Shown piece after piece: positions 3,001 to 64,000 of a stretch of 64,000 bases of DNA; within the stretch, counting starts at the first letter, position 1, and every line of letters starts with the position of its first letter. The notes beneath the pieces are model-generated. The model saw only the letters and a program-made list of their open reading frames with translations, searched no databases and was not told the DNA's origin. The translations under genes were made by a program, and so were the position numbers. Source of the DNA: Mytilus galloprovincialis (Eukaryota); NCBI RefSeq assembly GCF_965363235.1, contig NC_134842.1, positions 33,976,757 through 34,040,756 of the forward strand, read 5' to 3'.

Positions 3001-5265
3001 CCCATTAGACAGTTTTATACTTGACAAAAGTAAATAAATCTGAAAATGTTCCCTCACATATCGCTGATATAAGAGGGGAGGCAATAGGGGGTCCGTTAAA
3101 CAGTTAACAACAAATGTAAAAATGCCCCCCCCCCCCTTCTTATGAGCAGGGTGAAATAGGCGACCAAAATTAATGTATTTTCTGTTAGTTTTTAACTTAA
3201 ATCCGTATTTATAATATTGATATAATTCTTATCAGAGAGTTTTCCAAAATATATTGTGATTTTCGTACTAGAACCTTCATTGTCGTTTTTTAAATAAAGT
3301 TTTTGATTTTCTTAAACATGAGAAAAATTCAATTTGGATAGTACAATTTTGAGGCGAATAGCCCCCACTTAATTTATAATTGAAGCACATCATTTGAAAC
3401 AAGTTAAGCTTGAAACACATAGTTTAGGCTGTGAAGACGGCACCGCAGGAAATAAATAGTAAATTCCACTTGTATCTCACAGTGACACTGAGAAGTTCGT
3501 CCCAGGCGAGACAAAAAGCACTGTAAAACTCACATTTGAAATAATAATGTATGTAAAACATTGTGACGCATATATATACTTGTATCCGGTTGTGAAATCC
3601 CCAGTTTCTATTTTTAGCCTTTACTCTATTTCTTTCGATTGCACCACTCTAACAGTCAGCAAATCTCAATAAACATTTAATTAATTCGAGATTTGATAAG
3701 ACTGTATTCTTCGTGCAGCTCATTGAAAAGGTAAGGTTTAGTAACTATAATATATCCTATGGCTTTTTGCTAGTTTCTCATCTTATTGATTAAATATACA
3801 CAAGTATACATTATTAGATAAATAACCTATCGATACTAGATAAAATATTCATTGAAGATTAGCACACTAGTTGATTGAAAAGTTACAGATATATATATAT
3901 ATATATAGTATGTAATTGAAATGTACATGTTCGCTGTAATTTTTTCTTCAATAAACCTCTTATAGCGTACATGTATTTCGATATTGTTATGGGCGTAATT
4001 GTTTGTTATATATAATGTAAAGGCCCAGGGTGGTTTGCAATGAATGGATTTGCTAAAAATGTGCAGAGTAAATGCTGATTGAAAAAAAATGTGCAGAAAA
4101 TGTAAAGGAATGAAACATTAGAACATTACTTAAATTCTTTGATCATGCCTGAACATGACCACGGGTACACATGTCTGTCTAATTAAGGTAAAAACAACAT
4201 ACACGTATGCTATTCAGTTAATATCGTAATCTTATTTACTATACATCTACTATTTATTTTCCATTTATGTTAAACAGGTGCGTGCACTGTATCTTTAAGT
4301 TTTAAATCGATGCAGAACCAACACAACTTCCTCGTTTAAACAGTGTGAAAAATGTGAAATCTGAAAGTACTTTAAATGTAAGCTATTAAACACTTGAGTG
4401 GTTATGAACACGTATATTAATACATTTATATTGATCTAATTGTTTGGCTTGTATCCAACCAACACACCTAGGGTAAAGCCAATACCGTCAGCATTTTTTT
4501 TTTTATCCAGGTAAGAATATTAAATTTGTCGGTCATTCCTATATTTAGATCTTGTTTTTAAGTTTCAAGCAGTAAATTGAATAAATAAGGTAAGTAAAAT
4601 ATTATAACCATGATAAATGAAGATGTAGGTAAAGATTTATTCAGGTACAATATTATACAAATTTAAATACGTACGTAAGACAAGTATAAACCGTATTATT
4701 GTAGATTTACGACGTGTCTTTGTATTTACTTAATTTTTGCTGAATGTAATATTCAACCAACTTGTTATGATACACACTATCGATGAGACGACATTTTGTG
4801 TTGTGCAATAACTTTTCATTTTATTGAAAATCTCACATTTTGATAAATGCACTTTTAAACACGCCACTCGTATTAAGTCATCCTTACTAAATGGGTTCTA
4901 AAGACACGTTTTCCTTTCTTCAATTGAATATTTTATTTCCTCATATGCGACAACCAATCAATGCACATACATGAAACAGTGAGAATTCCTAACAAACCTT
5001 CAATTTCACAAATCCAATAACTATTTTAAATCACTTCCTCCAAATGTGATTTTGCACAAACATGCATGAACTATCTGTCACTGGACGATAAGTAAACATC
5101 AATCAAGCAATCTTAACGGGATTTGGATTTACTTTGCTGATAATCTTAATTGTGGATTTGAGGGAAAATATCACTAATTGCAATTGAGGCTTAACAGGTT
5201 AAGAAATTTTCTTAATACCGGATTGTTGTATACGAGATTGGTCCATTGGTAGGTGGATGGTTTCA

Positions 5266-8542: not shown

Positions 8543-8555
8543 GAATACTTTTAGT

Positions 8556-9165
8556 TTTCGCACTCTAACTTGAGTAAAAGTGAATAGAAATCTATGAAAT
8601 TTTAACACAAGGTTTATGACCACAAAAGGAAGGTTGGGATTGATTTTGGGAGTTTTGGTCCCAACATTTTAGGAATTAGGGGCCAAAAAGGGCCCAAATA
8701 AGCATTTTCTTGGTTTTCGCACTATAACTTTAGTTTAAGTTAATAGAAATCTATGAAATTTTGACACAAGGTTTATGACCACAAAAGAAAGGTTGGTATT
8801 GATTTTGGGAGTTTTGGTTCCAACAGTTTAGGAATTAGGGGCCAAAAAAGGGCCCAAATAAGCATTATTCTTGGTTTTCGCACAATAACTTTAGTTTAAG
8901 TAAATAGAAATCAATGAAATTTAAACACAATGTTTATGACCACAAAAGGAAGGTTGGTATTGATTTTGGGAGTTTAGGTCCCAACAGTTTAGGAATTAGG
9001 GGCCAAAAAGGGACCCAAATAAGCATTTTTCTTGGTTTTCGCACCATAACTTTAGTATAAGTAAATAGAAATCTATGAAATTTAAACACAAGGTTTATGA
9101 CCATAAAAGGAAGGTTGGTATTGATTTTGGGAGTTTTGGTCCCAACAGTTTAGGAATAAAGGGCC
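8556..9165. repeat. Satellite, ~160-163-bp unit x ~3.7 (ttttcgcac.ataactt.agt.taagt.aatagaaatctatgaaatttaaacacaaggtttatgaccacaaaaggaaggttgg.attgattttgggagttttggtcccaacagtttaggaattaggggccaaaaagggcccaaataagcatt...)
   Basis: Unit starts at 8556, 8719, 8879 and 9042. The same satellite is at 11125-11400 (copy B) and 22935-23215 (copy C), and an inverted fragment at 22665-22715. Confidence 0.85.
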
Positions 9166-9712
9166 CAAAGGGTCCAAAATTAAACTTTGTTTGATTTCAT
9201 CAAAAATTGAATAATTGGGGTTCTTTGATATGCCGAATCTAACTGTGTATGTAGATTCTTAATTTTTGGTCCCGTTTTCAAATTGGTCTACATTAAGGTC
9301 CAAAGGGTCCAAAATTAAACTTAGTTTGATTTTAACAAAAATTGAATCCTTGGGGTTCTTTGATATGCTGAATCTAAAAATGTACTTAATTTTTTTATTA
9401 TTGGCCCAGTTTTCAAGTTGGTCCAAATCGGGGTCCAAAATTAAACTTTGTTTGATTTCATCAAAAATTGAATAATTGGGGTTCTTTGATATGCCAAATC
9501 TAACTGTGTATGTAGATTCTTAATTTTTGGTCCCGTTTTAAAATTGGTCTACATTAAAGTCCAAAGGGTCCAAAATTAAACTAAGTATGATTTTAACAAA
9601 AATTGAATTCTTGGGCCTCTTTGATATGCTGAATCTAAACATGTACTAAGATTTTTGATTATGGGCCCAGTTTTCAAGTTGGTCCAAATCAGGATCCAAA
9701 ATTATTATATTA
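9164..9712. repeat. Satellite, ~133-bp unit x ~4 (ggtccaaaattaaactttgtttgatttcatcaaaaattgaataattggggttctttgatatgc.gaatctaa...ttggtc.acatt.aggtccaaagg)
   Basis: Periodicity 9164/9298/9432/9566. Also present at 11405-11690 and 11880-12120 in copy B, and 23200-23960 in copy C. Confidence 0.85.
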
Positions 9713-9713
9713 A

Positions 9714-9930
9714 GTATTGTGCAATAGCAAGAAATTTTCAATTGCACAGTATTCAGCAATAGCAAGAAATCTTCAATTGCACAGTATTGTGCAATAGCAA
9801 GAAATCTTCAATTGCACAGTATTGTGCAATAGCAAATATTTTCAATTGCACAGTATTGCACAATAGCAAGAAATATCTAATTGCACAATATTGTGCAATA
9901 GCAAGAAATTCCAATTGGATTTCAATTGGA
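9714..9930. repeat. 35-bp tandem repeat x ~6 in which every unit is itself a hairpin (tattgTGTGCAATagcaagaaat.ttcaATTGCACAg)
   Basis: Seen directly. 8-bp complementary arms tgtgcaat/attgcaca within each unit. The same array is at 11693-11880 in copy B. Confidence 0.85.
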
Positions 9931-11042: not shown

Positions 11043-12708
11043 ATACGACCGCAAACGGTAGTATATTGGTATATGACGTTGGCGTCGTCGTCGTCGTCCG
11101 AAGACACATCGGTTTTCGCACTATAACTTTATTTTAAGTGAATAGAAATCTACGAAATTTAAAAACAAGGTTTATGACCACAAAAGGAAGGTTTGGATTG
11201 ATTTTGGGAGTTTTGGTCCTAACAGTTTAGGAATTAGGGGCCAAAAAAGGGCCCAAAATAAGCATTTTTCTTGGTTTTCGCACAATAACTTTAGTATAAG
11301 TAAATAGAAATCAATGAAATTTAAACACAAGGTTTATGACCACAAAAGGAAGGTTTGGATGGATTTTGGGAGTTTTGGTCCCAACAGTTTAGGAATTAGG
11401 GGGTCCAAAGGGTCCAAAATTAAACTTTGTTTGATTTTATCAAAAATTGAATAATTGGTTTTCTTTGATATGCCGAATCTAACCGTGTATGTAGATTCTT
11501 AATTTTTGGTCCTGTTTTAAAATTGGTCTACATTAAGGTCCAAAGGGTCCAAAATTAAACTTGATTTTAACAAAAAATTAATTCTTGGGGTTCTTTGATA
11601 TGCTGAATCTAACATGTACTTAGATTTTTGATTATGGGCCCAGTTTTCAAGTTGGTACAAATCGGGGTCCAAAATTATTATATTAAGTATTGTTCAATAG
11701 CAAGAAATTTTCAATTGCACAGTATTGCGCAATAGCAAGAATTCTTCAATTTGCACAGTATTGTGCAATAGCAAGAAATATCTAATTGCACAATATTGCA
11801 CAATAGCAAGAAATTTTCAATTGCACAGTTTTGAGCAATAGCAAGAAATATTCAATTGCACAGTATTGTCCCGTTTTCAAATTGGTCTACATTAAGGTTC
11901 AAAGGGTCAAAAATTAAACTTTGAAAAAAATTGAATATATGGGGTTCTTCAATATGCTGAATCTAACCATGTATTTAGATTTTTAATATTTGCGCCCGGT
12001 TATCAAATTGGTCCACTTTGAGGTTTAAAGGGTCTAAAATTGAACATTATTTACTTTTATCAAAATTGAATTCTTGGGGTTCTATGATATGCTGAATCTA
12101 ACCATGTATTTAGATATTGGACCATAATAGGTAAATGTCCAATTTAGAATTTTTAAGTTTTTAAGTTCAAGTTCTTAGACCACATTCATTCTGTGTCAGA
12201 AACCTATGCTGTGTCAACTATTTAATCACAATCCAAATTCAGAGCTGTATCAAGCTTAAATGTTGTGTCCATACTTGCCCCAACTGTTCATGGTTAGACC
12301 TCTGCGGTCGTATGAAGCTGCGCCCTGCGGAGCATCTGGTTGATATTTTGGCCCGGTTATCAAATTGGTCCACATTGAGGTCTAAAGGGTCCAAAATTGA
12401 ACTTTATTTGATTTCATCAAAAATTGAATTCTTGGGGTTCTTTGATATGCTGAATCTAACCATGTATTTGTATTTTGGATATTGGACCATAATAGGTAAA
12501 TGTCCAATTTAGAATTTTTAAGTTTTTAAGTTCAAGTTCTTAGACCACATTCATTCTGTGTCAGAAACCTATGTTGTGTCAACTATTAAATCACAATCCA
12601 AATTCTGAGCTGTATCAAGCTTGAATGTTGAGTCCATACTTGCCCCAACTGTTCAGTGTTCGACCTCTGCGGTCGTATAAAGCTGCGCCCTGCGGAGCAT
12701 CTGGTTAA
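11043..12708 (+). mobile_element. Helitron/Helentron-like element copy B (in MVP intron 5) with a tandemly duplicated 3' terminal module (two complete 3' ends ending at ~12341 and ~12708)
   Basis: Same 5' terminus TATACGACCGCAAACGG plus (CGT)n. The 3' end ...ctctgcggtcgtat.aagctgcgccctgcggagcatctggtt occurs twice ~367 bp apart, each preceded by the same ~330-bp 3' module (gaccacattcattctgtgtcagaaacctatg.tgtgtcaactatt.aatcaca.tccaaatt...). Confidence 0.6.
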
Positions 12709-15251: not shown

Positions 15252-15463
15252 AATTCTGCAAGAATCATCAGATCTTCAGTATTTGGTTTTGACGAGAAAG
15301 GAAAAGTTCGAGGAGCTTTTAGATTCCCACAGAACAACTTGGTATTCACCAGTATTGATATTCAATCTGTTGAACCTGTAGATCAGAGAACAAGAGATGC
15401 CTTACAGAAATCTGTACAACTAGCCATTGAAATCACAACAAACTCACAGGAAGCTACTGCAAG
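15252..15463 (+). CDS. MVP: MVP exon 10: [70 protein letters not shown] + R split (phase 2 end)
   Basis: Acceptor ttgttttag|aat; donor ag|gtgagt. Matches human NSARIIRTAVFGFET...[34 protein letters not shown]. Confidence 0.88.
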
Positions 15464-16092
15464 GTGAGTAACTCAATAGAAATATGTAAAGCTAGCCATT
15501 GAATGCACATTTTACTCACGGGAAGCCGCTGAAAGGTAGGTTAGTTTGTCAACTTTTGTAATTAGTCACGACAAACTGAAGCTGAACCATATTCGATCGA
15601 TACAATCCTAGACATTTTCTAGGTGTAGTACACTACTGTTGCCTTGGAATTGATTCAGAAGTACATCATACATGTGTTAATGAATGTTGCACGCCTGCTA
15701 GATCTAATTGATCTTCAGAAGTAATATTGTTTAACCGTTGTGGACTGTACTAGAAGATATACAAAATTTATACTCGTACCAACATGGTTAGTGACACATA
15801 GACATATTGGGTATAAATGGCTCTGAACCAACAATATGTGGTCCAGATCATAAATGTCAGAAGTCGGAATAAACTGTTTACAGAGCGTGCAAATTTGGAA
15901 AAACAATATCCATAGAAACAATATTTTCTGAATAATTAACTTATCTGAAAACGTTTAATGTTGAAGATCTGATTTTGATGAATATTAAGTCTATACCAAA
16001 AAAAAATGAATATTATACCAATTCGTGTTTATACTTATTGTATAGTTGAAGCATGAACTATTATGTGTCTGAATGCCTTCAAATGGTTATGT

Positions 16093-16678
16093 CAAAGGAG
16101 TAGGTCCGGTAAGGACCGATTTTGGCCTCAAATTTCAGTTTCATCTGACGAAAGATTTTGACCACTTTTTAAACACTTAAGTGTTTATTTCATATGATGC
16201 AATTAATTTATGTGAAAGATTTTAACTTATTAAGTCATTAAAAACGATCCGATTCTGGCTCAAATATGAGAAATCTACCAAATATGCGAAAAATTGTCAC
16301 TTTTCAGATGGTTTTTGTCAAAAACGAAAGTGGCCGCATCCGTGTTCATCCTCAATCTTTATATATGTTATGTATTATCATTAAATACAACTTCCATTTC
16401 AATATTTTGGATGAACACGAATGCGGCCACTTTCATTTTACACGGAAACCGTCTAAAATTTAACTAAAATGCTGGAATTGTGAAGATTTCAGTAATTTAG
16501 CATGAATTAATGGTGCTAGTTCTCAATATATGTGCATTGTATTGTCATTAAGAGCCCATATTTATGTAGCAGAACCTTTCTACTATCCAATAAATGACTA
16601 AAAGTTTACATTTTAACAATTTTGTAAAACTGCTATATTTTGGGGCCAAAAAGGGGTCTTACTGGACCTACTCCTTTG
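16093..16678 (+). mobile_element. 586-bp MITE, copy 1 (inside MVP intron 10). ~35-bp imperfect TIRs caaaggagtaggtccggtaaggacc...ggtcttactggacctactcctttg. It also has an internal 26-bp-arm palindrome (gaaagtggccgcatccgtgttcatcc ... ggatgaacacgaatgcggccactttc).
   Basis: Terminal inverted repeats and the internal palindrome seen directly. No credible coding capacity. Second copy at 19701-20286 in opposite orientation. Confidence 0.75.
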
Positions 16679-16890
16679 ATGAGAAACGTAATATGTATAT
16701 TACATAACCAAATGAACTTATACCGAATAGTTTTATGTGGAAACTCTTCTTAGCCAGAAAGAACATTTTTTATCATGACCTCTGTCTGTTAAGACTGATG
16801 GATACAATTTTAATTCATACTTTTGCATTATGTTATTTGATGAAGATTTAATTCATAACTATTACTCTAAGTTTTCTTTTTAAATCTTAG

Positions 16891-17134
16891 ACATGAAGCA
16901 GAAAGATTAGAACAGGAAGCTAAAGGAAGATTAGAGAGACAGAAGATTTCAGATGAAGCAGAAGCCGAAAAATCCAGGAGACAGTTGTTGGAATTACAGG
17001 CAAACAGTGCTGCAGTAGAAAGTACTGGTCAGGCTAAAGCAGAGGCACAGTCCCGAGCTGAAGCTTCTAGGATTGAGGGTGAGGCAGCTGTAGACCAGGC
17101 CAAACTGAAATCACAGGCAATGAAAATTGAATCA
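16891..17134 (+). CDS. MVP: MVP exon 11: (R)[81 protein letters not shown]
   Basis: Acceptor aaatcttag|a completes the AGA codon; donor tca|gtaagt. Matches human [81 protein letters not shown]. Confidence 0.88.
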
Positions 17135-17519
17135 GTAAGTAGCATGGTTCATGTAAATTTTTACTGGAATTTGATGGCATAAGTGGTTAATAGGTGATTT
17201 GCTAAATCATTCAGATTTGACAACTTCATTGTTTAATTGTGTTTGATGTAGTTGTGAAGAATAGCCCACACACAAACTTAAATTTAAATCATTTCAGTTT
17301 AAAGTCGAGTTTATAATGGTGCTGGTTCCAAGTTTGTATATGTACCATTTTCTGTTTTGGCACAGTCCTTTTATTATCTGAAATTCTCTTTTGGGTGATC
17401 ATAAGAACCTTCGATTCATGTTACAACAAAACTACATGCTATCTATTCATTGAACTCAACAAAGCTGACAAGTTTTATTATTAATGATAACGTTAGTACA
17501 ATATAAAATCTTATTTTAG

Positions 17520-17861
17520 GAATCTGAATTGGAAAGACTTACACAAGCAAGAGAGGCAGAACTAGCATATGTCCGAGAACAAGATGAAATAGAACTAAGC
17601 AAATCTAGGGAAATGTCAAGCATTGAAACCACCAAATTCAAGAACATGGTGGACGCAATTGGAGCAAATACATTGGCAACCATGGCGTCGGCTGGACCAG
17701 ACCAACAGGTCCGTATGTTGCAGTCCCTGGGCCTGAAATCCACCTTAATCACGGACGGTAGCACACCTATTAATCTGTTTAATACAGCTAATGGATTGAT
17801 TGGAGGTATGATGCCAGCAAAGAGGCGAAATCGGAATGACGACGATGATTGTTATGAATAA
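17520..17861 (+). CDS. MVP: MVP exon 12 (terminal, includes TAA stop): [113 protein letters not shown]
   Basis: Acceptor cttattttag|gaa. Matches human EAELQRVQ...[58 protein letters not shown]. Stop TAA at 17859-17861. The C-terminal tail after NTANGLIGG is short and lineage-specific, so a further small intron at ggtatg (17807) cannot be excluded. Confidence 0.8.
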
Positions 17862-17863
17862 AT
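17858..17863 (+). promoter_or_regulatory. Candidate polyadenylation signal AATAAA overlapping the MVP stop codon (tgAATAAAtat). Alternative downstream signals at ~18386-18395 (aaataaataa).
   Basis: AATAAA hexamer seen in sequence. Usage cannot be known without transcript data. Confidence 0.3.
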
Positions 17864-19700
17864 ATTGGAATGTGCTTTTCTTATTAACATTAGTAATTTT
17901 GTGAAGAAAGTATTTTGTTTTGTAAAATTTATCATTTGAATATATTACATGTTATTGATACTAACATTATAAACAATTTGAACATGACATGGTATATCTT
18001 TGTTATATTTATTTATAACTGATGACATTGTATAATTTATAAACTTTGAAACGATGTGTGATAGAGGCGGGCTGATTTGTGTATTGTTTAGATGAGAAGG
18101 GGATAGTGTCAGAGAGTATGATGTTTTTTATATTTCAAAAAGTGATAGATATGTATGTTTTGTATATTTGATAGGTCTTTTTGTTACCTGGTCTTAACGT
18201 GTTAGGTCTATGGTCACTTTTATACGCTAATTTATCAAAATATTTAGTATATGTGCAATACATTTTTTTTGTATTTTAATAGTTTTCTTTATCACAACAT
18301 TGTTTGTTACTCATTTTTCTGAGATTTCAGAGATCAATTTCCATGAGTTATGTTTGTATATGTTATTTTACAATTAAATGTTTATAAATAAATAATCTTG
18401 ACTTGTGTTTCACTGGCATGGATCTCCCTTCCAATAGAACTCTGAGTATTCGGAACATTCTCCACGAGGGTCGTATTGACACAAAATGCACAAGAAAACA
18501 TTATCATAACATATTAATAATGACAAGAAATACCGTGAAATCGTACAAAATTTATAGAATAGTTTATGAAATTATTATTGAAATATATCTTACGTACAAT
18601 AATTAGGTCATACCACTCCAGTGACAAATTGAAATGAACGGGGCGTCAACAAGTTGTAGTAACATTCATGATATCAAATCTAATGCACCAGATGAGTATT
18701 TAGTCAATTAATGTCTCATTAGCAATGCTCGAAGCCAAAATATTTGAAAGTCAAAAACTAATACAGACGTTGAAAAGCCGATAAAACAAAAACAAAAAGG
18801 ACCAAAAAGTAAAGCCAAACCCGGAAAAGGAATCAGAGCTCGGTATAACCAGAAACAAGCATGAACGAATAACATACTAGTAATAATCTATAATCTAGAG
18901 TTGCTATCCCTAGTTAAATGTACTAAATAAACCATTACGAAGGAACGGTAGGTAATGTTGAAAACCCTCTGCGAATGACAGTTCACCAAAAGTGTTATCA
19001 AATAAAGTTAAGCGCAAAATTGTATGCAACATTGGCTTTTGTGTGGGTCATGTTCGCTTGATTAATTTATTTTTAACTTGTTTGTTGCTTGCTCAACGTG
19101 CAAGAAGAAACTAATTATTTTGTAAACGAAACGCGTGTCTTGCTTACTAATGTTTAATCCTGGTATCTATGATGTATTGAGTTTAGATACAACCTTTGGG
19201 TCGATGCCACTGCTGGTGGAGGTTTTTTCACCGATGGTATCACCAGCCCAGTAGTTAGCACTTTAGTGTTGACATGAATTATCATTGGTATGGTCCCAAT
19301 TATAAATTAACGGTTTACAAAACTTTTTTTCCTCAGGAATAGATTACCTTGGCTTTATTTGGCAAAACCTTTCGGAATTGTGGGTGACCAATGCTCTTCG
19401 ACTTTAACCTTATTTGGCCTTTTTTACTGTGTTGATTCGAGCGTCACGTGCACTGAAAATGCGCGTCTGGCGTACAAATTTTAATTCTGGTACGTATGAT
19501 GAGTTTATTCAATACCAATTTGTTATTTTTAGAGAAGTATTGATATATTCTTCTTCGTTCAAGTTCTTATGATTTTTTTTATTCGGACTTGCATGTTTAA
19601 TTGGGAAACAATTATTTGAGGAAAGCGTAATCAAAACAGCTTAAAATACAGTTAAGTAAAATCTTATATAATCTAATAAAAAAATGCCATGCTCACTAAA

Positions 19701-20286
19701 CAAAGGAGTAGGTTCAGTAAGACCCCTTTTTGGCCCCAAAATGTAGCAGTTTTACAAAATTGTTAAAATGTAAACCTTTAGTTATTTATTGGACAGTAGA
19801 ATGCTTCTGCTACATAAATATGGGCTGTTTTTGACAATACAATGCACATATATCCGGTACTAGCACCATTAAGTCATGTTAAATTACTGAAATCCTAATA
19901 ATTCTAGCATTTTAGTTAAATTTTAGACGGTTTTCGTGTAAAACGAAAGTGGCCGCATTCGTGTTCATCCTTGATATTGAAATGTAATTTGTATTTTATG
20001 ATAATACATAACATATATAAAGGTTGAGGATGAACACGGATGCGACCACTTTCATTTTTACCAAAAACCATCTGAAAAGTGACATTTTTCGGCATATTAG
20101 GTAGATTTTTCATATTTGAGCTTGAATCGGATCGTTTTTAATGACTAAATCTGTTAAAATCTTTCACACAAACTAATTAATTCAAATAAAATAGACACTT
20201 AAGTGTTTAAAAAGTGGTCAAAATCTTTCGTCAGATGAACCTGAAATTTGAGGCCAAAATCGGTCCTTACCGGACCTAATCCTTTT
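19701..20286 (-). mobile_element. 586-bp MITE, copy 2, inverted relative to copy 1, located ~1.8 kb downstream of the MVP stop codon
   Basis: Reverse complement of 16093-16678 along its whole length (~90% identity). Track ORFs 16266-16463(+) and 19916-20113(-) translate to near-identical peptides, which gives the pair away. Confidence 0.75.
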
Positions 20287-20825
20287 AAAGTCAACCATTC
20301 ATGTATAAATATGTACATAAATATGTTTAACCCCGCCGCGTTTTTGCGCCTGTCCCAAGTCAGGAGCCTCTGGCCTTTGTTAGTCTTGTATTATTTTAAA
20401 TTTTAGTTTCTTGTGTTCAATTTTGGAGTTTAGTATGGCGTTCATTATCACTGAACTAGTATATATAATGTATTTGTTTAGGGGCCATCTGAAGGACGCC
20501 TCCGGGTGCGGGAATTTCTCGCTGCATTGAAGACCTGTTGGTGACCTTCTGCTGTTGTCAGTTCTATGGTCGGGTTGTTGTCTCTTTGACACATTCCCCA
20601 TTTCAATTTTATGGATAGATACTTCAAATTAATCATACATGTATTTTGATTGTTCAAGTTGAGTTTGTCTTTTTCACAGTTAGAATTAAAGTTTTAATGG
20701 GGTTCAATGCCACGTACAATCGAATCTCGTCCCAACTTCTTATTGAGAAACTGTTGACACAGAGATATATCTTTTTTGTAATTTTGGTTGTTTAATGCAA
20801 ATATTTAATCCAATCGACAATATTT

Positions 20826-22200
20826 AAACATGTGAACTAGGCTAAACATTCAAAGTCAATGACCCATTACTTATTGTGCAGGACCAAATAACTTCTTTGG
20901 AAATGAGGAATGCCAATGCTTATTAAACTGTATACCAAATACCGTTGACTTATCATTAGTGGTGCCTTTTACACTAACCAAAACACAAACTTTAAATTGT
21001 AAACAATGAACAAGTCAAAGAATCATGATGGAGGGATTGTGCCATATAATCTCCACGAAAAAGAGACTTGCAAATGCTAATACCGAATATCATCGACTTA
21101 ACATAATTGGTTCCCCGTAACTACAATCCCGTCCCATTTCCCTCAAATATGACTTATTAAATTAGACTTATCACCGGGTTCATATTTACATGAGCAATAT
21201 GATTGTTGCCACATGTGAAGTAGGATCTGCTCACCCTTCCGGAGCACCTGAGATTACACCCAGTTTTTGGTCGGGTTCGTATTGCTCAGTCTTTTGTTTT
21301 CTATGTTGTGTTTTGTGTACTGTTGTTTGTCTTTTTGACCCATGGCGTTGTCCGCTTATTTTAGACTTATTAGTTTGAGTGTCCATTTGTTATCTTTCGC
21401 CTCTCCCTTAAGGAAGCTATTAAACCAAGAGTTCCAAATGGTGAAGTTGAAATCATCCCTTCGTAAATTTTACGGACGCCATCACGAGTTGGTTGACCGT
21501 TATGGAATAACCGTTTCACAAATGATATCGGATATGTTCCTTACGTCGTAACTACAATCCCCTTCCCTTTCATGAATATGACCTACCGAATTAGACTATT
21601 TACCGGATTTGTAATCACATAAGCAACACGACGGGTGCCACATGTGGAGCAGGATCTGCTTACCCTCCCGGAGCACCTGAGATCACCCCTAGTTTTTGGT
21701 GGGGTTCGTGTTGTTTATTCTTTAGTTTTCTATGTTGTGTCGTGTGTACTATTGTTTTTCTGTTTGTCTTTTTCATTTTTAGCCATGGCATTGTCAGTTT
21801 GTTTTAGATTTATGAGTTTGACTGTCCCTTTGGTATCTTTCGTCCCTCTTTTAAACTGATTTAATCACAAACTTTAACGAGTAAACTATGCAAAACATTC
21901 AAAGTCAATCAACCATGACTTAGGGGCGGAGCCAAATAATCTCCATGGAAATGAGATGTGCCAATACTAATGCATTAATTTACATACCAAATATCATTAA
22001 CCTACCACTAGCGATTCCTCTCAAACAGACCTAATCACAACCTAATACGTTTCAAAAGTTTCAAAGTCCATATGCCATCACTGATTGGGTGGGGTAAAAA
22101 ACTCCATGGCAATGAAATGTGTAAATGCTAATACAACTGCATACCAATGCATGCATATACACTAAACGTAGTCCTTTGTGCAGATTGACATTCATATTAT
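20826..22200. repeat. Three dispersed copies (20826-20950, 21885-21995, 22060-22150) of a ~110-bp repeat (aaacattcaaagtcaat.a.ccat.act.a...ccaaataa.ctcc.tgg.aatgag.a.tg.caatgct.at...ataccaaat)
   Basis: Seen by eye. These flank the ~440-bp duplicated repeat. Confidence 0.5.
21110..21870. repeat. Two tandem, diverged (~80%) copies of a ~440-bp interspersed repeat (gtaactacaatccc.tccc.tt...acatgtg.ag.aggatctgct.accct.ccggagcacctgagat.acccc.agtttttggt.gggttcgt.ttg...)
   Basis: Copy 1 ~21113-21548, copy 2 ~21549-21865. The weak ggttcg motif could hint at a SINE origin, but there are no convincing A/B boxes. Confidence 0.55.
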
Positions 22201-22852: not shown

Positions 22853-24177
22853 CAAACGGTCGTATAATATTGGTATGACTTTGGCGTCGTCATCGTCGTC
22901 GTCGTCGTCCGAAGACACATCGGTTTTCGCACTATAACTTGAGTTTAAGTGAATAGAAATCTGTGAAATTTAAACACAAGGTTTATGACCACAAAAGGAA
23001 GGTTGGGATTGATTTTAGGAGTTTTGGTCCCAACAGTTTAGGAATAAGGGGCCAAAAAGGGCCCAAATAAGCATTTTTCTTGTTTTTCGCACAATTACTT
23101 TAGTATAAGTTAATAGAAATCTATGAAATTTTAACACAAGGTTTATGACCACAAAATGAAGGTTTGGTTTTATTTTGGGAGTTTTGGTCCCATCGAATTA
23201 GAGGCCAAAAGGGTCCAAAATTAAACTTTGTTTGGTTTCATCAAAAAATGTATTATTGGGGTTCTTCGATATGCCAAATCTTACCGTGTATTCAGATTCT
23301 TAATTTCTGGTCCTGTTTTCAAATTGGTCTACATTAAGGTCCAAAGGGTCCAAAATTAAACTCAGCTTGATTTTAACAAAAATTGAATTCTTGGGGTTCT
23401 TTGATATGCTGAATCTAAACATGTACTAAGATTTTTGATTATGGGCCCAGTTTTCAAGTTGGTTTAAATCGGGGTCCAAAATTAAACTTTGTTTGATTTC
23501 AACAAAAATTGAATCATTGGGGTTCTTTGATATGCTGAATCTAAACATGTATTAAGATTTTTGCTTATAGACCCAGTTTTCAAGTTGGTCCAAATCGGGG
23601 TCCAAAATTAAACTTTGTTTGATTTCAACATTAATTGAATCCTTGGGGTTCTTTGATATGCTGAATCTAAAAATGTATTTATATTTTTTATTATAGTCCC
23701 AGTTTTCAAGTTGGTCCAAATCGGGGTCCTTAATTAAACTTTGTTTGATTTCAACCAAAAATGAATATATGGGGTTCCTTGATATATGCTGAATCTAACC
23801 ATGTATTTATATTTTTGATATTTTGGCCCGGTTATCAAATTGGTCCACATTGAGGTCTAAAGGGTCCAAAATAGAACTTTATTTGATTTCATCAAAAATT
23901 GAATTCATTGGGTTCTTTGATATGGTGAAACCATATATCTAGATTTTGGATATTGGACCATAATAGGTAAATGTCCAATTTAAAATGTTTAAGTTTTTAA
24001 GTTTAAGTTCTTAGACCACATTCATTCTGTGTCAGAAACCTATGTTGTGTCAACTATTTAATCACAATCCAAATTCAGAGCTGTATCAAGCTTGAATGTT
24101 GTGTCCATACTTGCCCCAACTGTTCAGGGTTCCACCTCTGCAGTCGTATAAAGCTGTGTCCTGCAGAGCATCTGGTT
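22853..24177 (+). mobile_element. Helitron/Helentron-like element copy C (downstream of MVP), same termini and internal satellites as A and B. Its 3' end shows CpG-to-TpG/CpA changes relative to A and B.
   Basis: 5' end ttttatacgaccgcaaacggtcg plus (CGT)n. 3' end ctctgcagtcgtataaagctgtgtcctgcagagcatctggtt, versus ctctgcggtcgtataaagctgcgccctgcggagcatctggtt in A and B. Confidence 0.6.
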
Positions 24178-62800: not shown

Positions 62801-64000
62801 AAGGAAAGAGTGATTAGGCCAGGTGCAAAAAGGTTATATTTACACTTTTCGGAACATCTCTTGACTTGCCTATAGGGGTATGGATGTGTATTGGCCAAAT
62901 TTGTATGATGTAAAGATGCAATTTTTCTGAAAATTGCATATATTTTTGGACTTGTACTGTACATTACACACACAAAAAATTAGACAAAAAGAATAGGCAA
63001 TTTTTTTTTAATGCGACAAAACGTTATAAAGAAATGATAGAGGAATTAATTGTGGTCTCGGGCCTAAGAGGTGCATTTCAGCAAATTTTGAATTTATACT
63101 TTGACAACTTCTCTGAATGATCTATTGGTATTGATTTGTCAAACTATATGAGAAGAAATGATTTCCACTTTTATTTGATAGAAATTTGTAAAAAAAAGTC
63201 ACTTTTCAGCTGATATGCCCAAAAAGTAGCTTTTTCACTTTTTTCAATATTTTTGCAAAAGCAGTATCCTTAATTTTTCTCTGACATTTTTTTTCTGATA
63301 TTTATTTGTGTTTGTGGTATTTATTTCATGTGTTTTACTCATTTGTGAACTCTGAACACAAAGAAAAGTGGATAAAGCATTAAAAGAGTGCAAAATGTGC
63401 TGTTTTAATAGTCTAGGTCTAACGGTCCGTACGAAGCAAGTGAAATATGAAGTTCTATGCACTTAAAAATTTTATTTCTTTAAACAGATTGCACTGAATC
63501 TATATCAAAAGCACTTATTACTGGTTGTTTAAACTTGTCTGTTTCACAGAATACCTTTATTTTCTTCTGTTGGATGGCTGGTGGTTAAAATTTTGGCATT
63601 TTAAGACTGAAATTTCATGCAGATTTTAAACAGTAAATTGAAAAAACTTTGCATCAGACCATACTGTCTACATATATAGTTAAAAGCAACAGTCTTGTAA
63701 CATCCAGGCTTCATATTTGATCATATCTCAGCAAGGATTTGAGCAAAAAGAAGCATATTTCCATCTCCAATATCATTTATATGCAATTTAATATGGAAAT
63801 ATAGGGAACGGCCCAAATTGACAACTTGTTATTTTAAGCTTGACATTGCTTAAGACCATGTAAAACTCATGTGTTATGCTCTTTGAAACTTATATTTACA
63901 TCAAAAGAACATTTATGATATGTAAAATGTTTTGTTTTAACTTAACAACTTCAGAAAATTGTTGTAAGTGGAAAATATTACATTTCATATAAGGCCTCAC

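Follow-up and report, generated by a model that had tools for sequence, protein, structure and literature searches.

At the 3′ end of the MVP gene of Mytilus galloprovincialis, two copies of a 586-bp element stand in opposite orientation on either side of the last two coding exons. They lie in a 64,000-nt stretch of genomic DNA, hereafter called the window (NCBI RefSeq assembly GCF_965363235.1, contig NC_134842.1, positions 33,976,757 to 34,040,756 of the forward strand), and all coordinates below count from its first nucleotide. We consider it most likely, with a probability of roughly 0.8, that they go back to two separate, old insertions of a single short, non-autonomous family that bears terminal inverted repeats (TIRs) and resembles miniature inverted-repeat transposable elements (MITEs), and that the pair is neutral. 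One family copy would have landed in MVP intron 10 and the other, in the opposite orientation, about 1.8 kb past the gene, each presumably moved by cut-and-paste with a transposase supplied in trans. Because the locus is dense in repeats, the inverted arrangement can be read as a by-product of transposon accumulation, presumably without any selected role. Inverted pairs of this kind are commonplace in animal genomes rich in repeats, and nothing indicates that this one has a function; two unrelated insertions suffice to explain a striking inverted structure of 4.2 kb at the 3′ end of a gene.

The two copies are located as follows:

16093-16678, + strand: element copy 1, in MVP intron 10; 94.2% identity to the family consensus.
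19701-20286, − strand: element copy 2, downstream of MVP; 94.9% identity to the family consensus.

By direct count, the copies align over 586 positions without gaps and differ at 54 of them (26 transitions and 28 transversions), i.e., they are 90.8% identical, the longest stretches of perfect identity being 45, 38 and 32 nt. A blastn comparison of copy 1 with the window returned a single match (16093-16679 against 20285-19701; 90.9% over 585 nt, no gaps), and an inverted-repeat search reported arms of 590 nt (16094-16683 and 19696-20285), 91% complementary and 3012 nt apart. The preliminary description of this locus had given the same coordinates, the length of 586 bp and an identity of about 90% for the inverted copies, all of which is borne out by these complementary means. 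It had also proposed a stem-loop of about 3.6 kb: the arms are indeed inverted, but 3.6 kb is the start-to-start spacing, while the loop that separates the copies measures 3,022 nt and the entire structure 4,194 nt. In a pairwise alignment including 100 nt of flanking DNA, the likeness breaks off sharply at ...CCTACTCCTTTG at one end and at about (C)AAAGGAGTAGG at the other. A 21-nt TIR probe, allowing up to 3 mismatches, matched only the two copies in the window, where 0 matches were expected (100 shuffles). The heptamer AATGGTT is common to the 5′ flanks of both copies; we take this as coincidence, because no other family copy has it.

Both copies contain inverted repeats of their own:

16093-16132, + strand: 5′ TIR of copy 1, pairing with 16639-16678 (41-nt arms, 85% complementary).
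16639-16678, + strand: 3′ TIR of copy 1, partner of 16093-16132.
16326-16434, + strand: internal palindrome of copy 1 (26-nt arms 16326-16351 and 16409-16434, 25 of 26 positions matched).
19945-20053, − strand: internal palindrome of copy 2 (arms 19945-19970 and 20028-20053).

The TIRs, which are long and symmetric, measure about 40 nt in both window copies and are kept in the other full-length copies of the family; the termini carry CAAAGGAGTAGGTCCGGTAAGG. An internal palindrome with 26-bp arms had been described for each copy, and its arms are found in both. The palindrome is nested in a longer, imperfect one, which in copy 1 spans 16270-16490 (95-nt arms, 71%) and in copy 2 has 75-nt arms (75%). 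The element contains no internal tandem repeats. As single-stranded DNA (ssDNA), it is predicted to fold on itself with −99.6 kcal/mol, against −50.1±4.9 for shuffled sequences (z = −10.2); as RNA, the corresponding values are −194 and −114±7 kcal/mol. Its only open reading frame (ORF; 73 amino acids, lying across the palindrome) has no Pfam family, and Rfam and tRNA searches of window positions 1-27000 gave no matches. The element thus has the structure of a MITE: it is A+T-rich and non-coding, has a length of 586 nt (below about 800 bp), TIRs and a strong tendency to self-folding, and occurs in many dispersed copies.

Further members of the family were sought with the 73-amino-acid pseudo-ORF as a protein query. 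This search yielded 31 protein clusters comprising 67 member sequences. Nearly all of them stem from ENA assembly ERZ6864376, and NCBI GCA_014845185.1 contributed one; no precomputed Pfam domain is attached to any of the 31 homologue clusters. At the nucleotide level, eleven further copies were obtained from other public assemblies (loci L002-L010, L020 and L021), and a twelfth (L013), from a marine metagenome, was picked up when JGI/ENA metagenome contigs were scanned with a sequence pattern. A 29-nt TIR pattern had 0 matches in the JGI metagenome contigs, and a 20-nt core pattern had 9 in the JGI metagenome, of which only L013 was genuine, the other 8 being chance 20-mers. The flanks of all twelve further copies are unrelated, which makes the element a dispersed repeat family. 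Its copies are about 83-97% identical pairwise and are located in and near genes. Eight elements are full-length, namely those of L004, L006, L008, L009, L020 and L021 and the two window copies. In L006, the element is interrupted in its middle by about 440 bp of inserted DNA (3139-3578 of that locus), probably a nested element. A search of the accessible literature for the TIR sequence gave no match, and the MITE-like family documented by this locus is apparently undescribed so far, which matters little as matters stand.

The family alignment bears directly on the origin of the pair. Copy 2 is 96.1% identical to the element in L004 and 96.6% to that in L003, both at unrelated loci in other assemblies, versus 90.8% to copy 1. 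Copy 1, for its part, shares 87-91% identity with most other copies and 84-85% with those in L006 and L010, so that the identity between the two arms is no higher than the family background. Together with the lack of homology between their flanks, the closer relation of copy 2 to L003 and L004 than to copy 1 shows that the arms stem from different source copies, and we regard them, on this comparison, as separate insertions. The same relation shows that gene conversion has not homogenised the arms after their insertion. Had one copy instead been derived from the other by a local rearrangement, an inverted duplication rather than a transposition, their distance of only 3 kb and their equal length without indels would find a ready explanation. 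The other full-length copies also measure 584-586 nt, however, and a local duplication would explain neither why the homology stops at the element ends nor why copy 2 is so much nearer to copies at unrelated loci; we find this origin barely credible.

The orthologous MVP contig of a related taxon (L001) offers a second line of evidence. Its exons encode a protein 99% identical to that of the window, and the DNA is 81-91% identical. Intron 10 of L001 has about 262 nt and does not contain the element; the inverted pair is therefore not conserved. Compared with positions 2911-2915 of L001, intron 10 of the window has an extra block of 1,022 bp (15808-16829), made up of the 586-bp element, which lies inside it, and 285 and 151 bp of unique-looking sequence. 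The absence of the element from L001 being part of a 1,022-bp indel, this contig provides no precise empty site, and the block would be explained either by a nested insertion or by a deletion in the other lineage. Exons 11 and 12 have the same orientation in L001 as in the window.

The assignment to a transposon class is less straightforward, and several results here weigh against our reading. The preliminary description had called the copies MITEs and had proposed determining the target-site duplication (TSD) of the family. We carried this out on eight full-length copies, and no TSD was found, so that the name is upheld by structure, TIRs and dispersal and not by the TSD. Six of the copies were scanned for repeats of k = 2-10 with boundary offsets to ±12 nt, mismatched pairings of 5′ and 3′ flanks serving as the control; the true flank pairing never rose above this control. 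A perfect 3-mer at the canonical ends was present in only 1 of 6 copies (copy 2, TTT/TTT), when at about 6% divergence a 3-bp TSD would be expected intact in about 4 of 6. The flanks of L020 and L021, inspected by eye, showed no TSD either. Models with an 8-bp (hAT), TA, TTAA or 3-bp TSD were all rejected, there being no signal for any of them at the observed ends. In addition, the TIR probe, run against the fetched loci, retrieved the same family only and no autonomous partner. These results speak against a conventional TSD; eight copies are a small sample, however, each 5-10% away from the consensus, and a short TSD that has eroded is compatible with it.

Because no TSD was seen in the eight full-length copies, the term MITE should be taken as a statement on structure only, and no superfamily can be assigned. 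The 5′-CAAAG end of the element presumably fits the hAT-like YARNG pattern; the 8-bp TSD expected of a hAT element is absent. A Helitron- or Helentron-type origin was considered for the missing TSD and rejected: it accords neither with long, symmetric TIRs at the very termini nor with flanks that lack the T/T signature.

The missing TSD might also mean that the family is not a classical cut-and-paste MITE at all but a TIR-bearing repeat that spreads without target duplication, by some unfamiliar or atypical mechanism, or one whose target is invariably a palindromic, CAAA|TTTG-like site, in which case the apparent outermost TIR bases may really be target sequence. The outermost base is ill conserved (C in 5 of 10 5′ ends, G in 4 of 12 3′ ends), unlike the adjoining AAAGGAGTAGG, which is nearly invariant, and this, like the missing TSD itself, speaks for such a reading. 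With only eight diverged copies and no empty site at hand (the joined flanks of every copy, searched against all fetched DNA, found none), and with long, symmetric TIRs that are typical of transposase-mobilised elements, we think it unlikely. If true, either mode of insertion would be chemically unusual among eukaryotic TIR elements, and were the absence of the TSD to hold genome-wide, the family would matter more.

Among known systems, the MITEs of animals, including those in surveys of bivalve transposable elements (PMC10294476), resemble the window element in being short, A+T-rich, non-coding and dispersed, with TIRs of about 40 nt and hairpin potential. They differ in that the window element has no detectable TSD in eight copies and can be assigned neither to hAT nor to Tc1/mariner or PIF.

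From stop-to-stop translation, the MVP gene has 12 coding exons between about 5.49 and 17.86 kb on the + strand; 11 of the 12 are visible in translation, and the remaining one is deduced, from a missing stretch of MVP, to lie between 10.7 and 13.7 kb. Conceptually translated, exons 10-12 align to residues 594-851 of human MVP (PDB; E = 3.4e-95) and match Pfam MVP_shoulder (E = 2.9e-11), confirming the earlier identification of the gene; the vault-repeat Pfam families were found on the orthologous contig L001, and the nearest named protein matches to the window MVP are flatworm MVPs (69-76%). The 3′ part of the gene is arranged as follows:

15252-15463, + strand: MVP coding exon 10, donor GTGAGT at 15464.
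15464-16890, + strand: MVP intron 10, which holds copy 1.
16891-17134, + strand: MVP coding exon 11, ending ...KIES; begins the C-terminal helical region.
17520-17861, + strand: coding part of MVP exon 12, stop codon TAA at 17859-17861.
17857, 18373, 18387, 18926, 19001 and 19675, + strand: six candidate poly(A) signals (AATAAA/ATTAAA) in the interval 17857-19680, all before copy 2.

These exon coordinates agree with the claim that copy 1 sits in intron 10 and that the pair surrounds the last two coding exons: copy 1 is wholly intronic, 629 nt past the exon-10 donor and 212 nt short of exon 11, and copy 2 starts 1,839 nt past the stop codon. The 3′ untranslated region (3′UTR) had been thought to be enclosed as well. 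Because all six poly(A) signals come before copy 2, the last of them (19675) only 21 nt ahead of it, this copy may be outside the MVP mRNA, and the pair may or may not bracket the 3′UTR. The AATAAA hexamer at 17857-17862 overlaps the stop codon itself (gAATAAAt) and would, if used, give a nearly UTR-less mRNA. A Pfam search with eight ORFs from 18-23 kb found nothing, and hence no neighbouring gene was identified beside copy 2.

At 15478-15537, the gene contains a degenerate duplicate, 60 nt long (78%), of the last part of exon 10, including a GT donor-like site. It lies 72 nt downstream of the true exon end and carries an in-frame stop; L001 has it too, which shows that it is old.

If MVP pre-mRNA were read through into copy 2, the two copies could form a duplex some 550 bp long, with exons 11 and 12 looped out, and this would expose the 3′ end of MVP to editing by ADAR, processing by Dicer or retention in the nucleus. 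The only point that favours a function is thermodynamic, and it too tells against the neutral reading: for both arms in one RNA, the predicted cofold reaches −836 kcal/mol with 546 inter-arm pairs, so that co-transcribed arms would form this duplex in preference to their self-folds (−194 and −165, together −359 kcal/mol). The perfect runs of up to 45 bp and the placement of both arms on the same strand inside 4.2 kb would suit such pairing. Set against this are the poly(A) signals ahead of copy 2, the ability of each arm to fold on itself once transcribed, and the related-taxon intron 10 that has no copy 1. Nor do the differences between the arms bear the mark of a maintained duplex: the transitions divide into 13 that are G·U-compatible and 13 that are not, from which we conclude that complementarity is not under selection, and the similarity of the arms is not in excess of the family's. 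Canonical back-splicing would probably be unable to use the pair, because copy 2 lies past the terminal exon. A functional inverted repeat at the RNA level is, in our judgement, decidedly improbable. We give still less credence to the proposition that the family inserts without a TSD or only at a CAAA|TTTG-type site, or that a read-through MVP double-stranded RNA (dsRNA) of about 550 bp is edited or diced.

Inverted pairs of Alu elements (IRAlus) in human introns and 3′UTRs form long dsRNA and are associated with hyper-editing by ADAR and with nuclear retention. The window pair is like them in that two diverged copies of a dispersed, non-autonomous element, oppositely oriented, lie within a few kb of one gene, where a long imperfect duplex is possible. 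It is unlike them in that each arm is itself a hairpin, which an Alu is not, in that the pair is not shared with the related taxon, and in that the arms may never be part of one transcript, six poly(A) signals preceding copy 2. Should the pair indeed yield dsRNA from a housekeeping gene, it would gain in importance as a natural IRAlu-like case outside vertebrates.

At the DNA level, a cruciform, a fold-back or recombination between arms of 586 nt and 91% identity might invert or delete the 3′ end of MVP and so generate structural polymorphism. The closest experimental parallel is the yeast Alu palindrome-fragility models of the Lobachev laboratory (PMC10164571), where the arms are likewise of several hundred bp and of comparable divergence. 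As described there, Alu inverted repeats still rearrange in long single-stranded DNA at distances of up to 30 kb and at heterologies of up to 25%, and repeats that are divergent and far apart turn dangerous in such DNA only. In duplex DNA, the same work has instability dropping about 40-fold as the spacer goes from 12 to 20 bp and declining exponentially with divergence (PMC10164571). By these data, the 3-kb spacer puts the window pair beyond the duplex-unstable range, and a spacer of 3,022 nt combined with 9% divergence should normally leave the pair stable, with relevance only where long ssDNA arises (resection, replication stress). Exons 11 and 12 have the same orientation in L001, and the arms show no homogenisation by gene conversion. 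We hold a recombinogenic role to be very unlikely. The preliminary description had suggested recombination, formation of dsRNA and small interfering RNA (siRNA), RNA editing and an influence on 3′-end processing; none of these roles gains support from a pair of which copy 1 is missing from L001, whose arms resemble each other no more closely than family members taken at random, whose transitions show no G·U bias and whose spacer and divergence place it among the inverted repeats that stay stable as duplex DNA (PMC10164571).

The neutral reading is set in a locus rich in other repeats. Two composite elements (8554-9917 and 11111-11869), in consecutive MVP introns, each consist of three successive tandem arrays with units of about 161 bp, 126-135 bp and 35 bp, and look like tandem-repeat-containing mobile elements. 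Related arrays of 126/252 bp recur downstream of MVP, and further sites are listed at 11986-12706 and 23211-23929. A literature search for these neighbouring tandem-repeat units gave no match. We take the composite elements to be similar to the tandem-repeat-bearing, MITE-like or Helitron-related elements of bivalves (pearl, MgE, DTC84). The 586-bp element is of another kind, having no internal tandem repeats, long symmetric TIRs and no T/T insertion signature.

From 24684 to the window end at 64000 extends a 39-kb tandem array with a unit of about 1,748 bp and interspersed units of about 1,292 bp. Its copies are 99.9% identical, its G+C content is uniform (0.30) and its ORFs are short and anonymous; the first 2.3 kb had no match in Rfam. 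Either a macrosatellite or an artefact of the assembly might account for it.

Directly beside copy 2, at 20320-20610, lies a member of another repeat family, which is also found near the element copies in L009 (about 805-885) and L010 (1318-1620) with 77-86% identity. Since orientation and distance are inconsistent, this is probably co-occurrence in repeat-dense DNA. Slightly further downstream, a dispersed repeat occurs twice in a tandem-like manner (21116-21405 and 21410-21853), with ORFs that share the motif ...GAPEITPSFW...CC... and have no Pfam match. This repeat is 93-95% identical to positions 822-1094 and 2807-2925 of L002, where it adjoins the L002 copy of the element.

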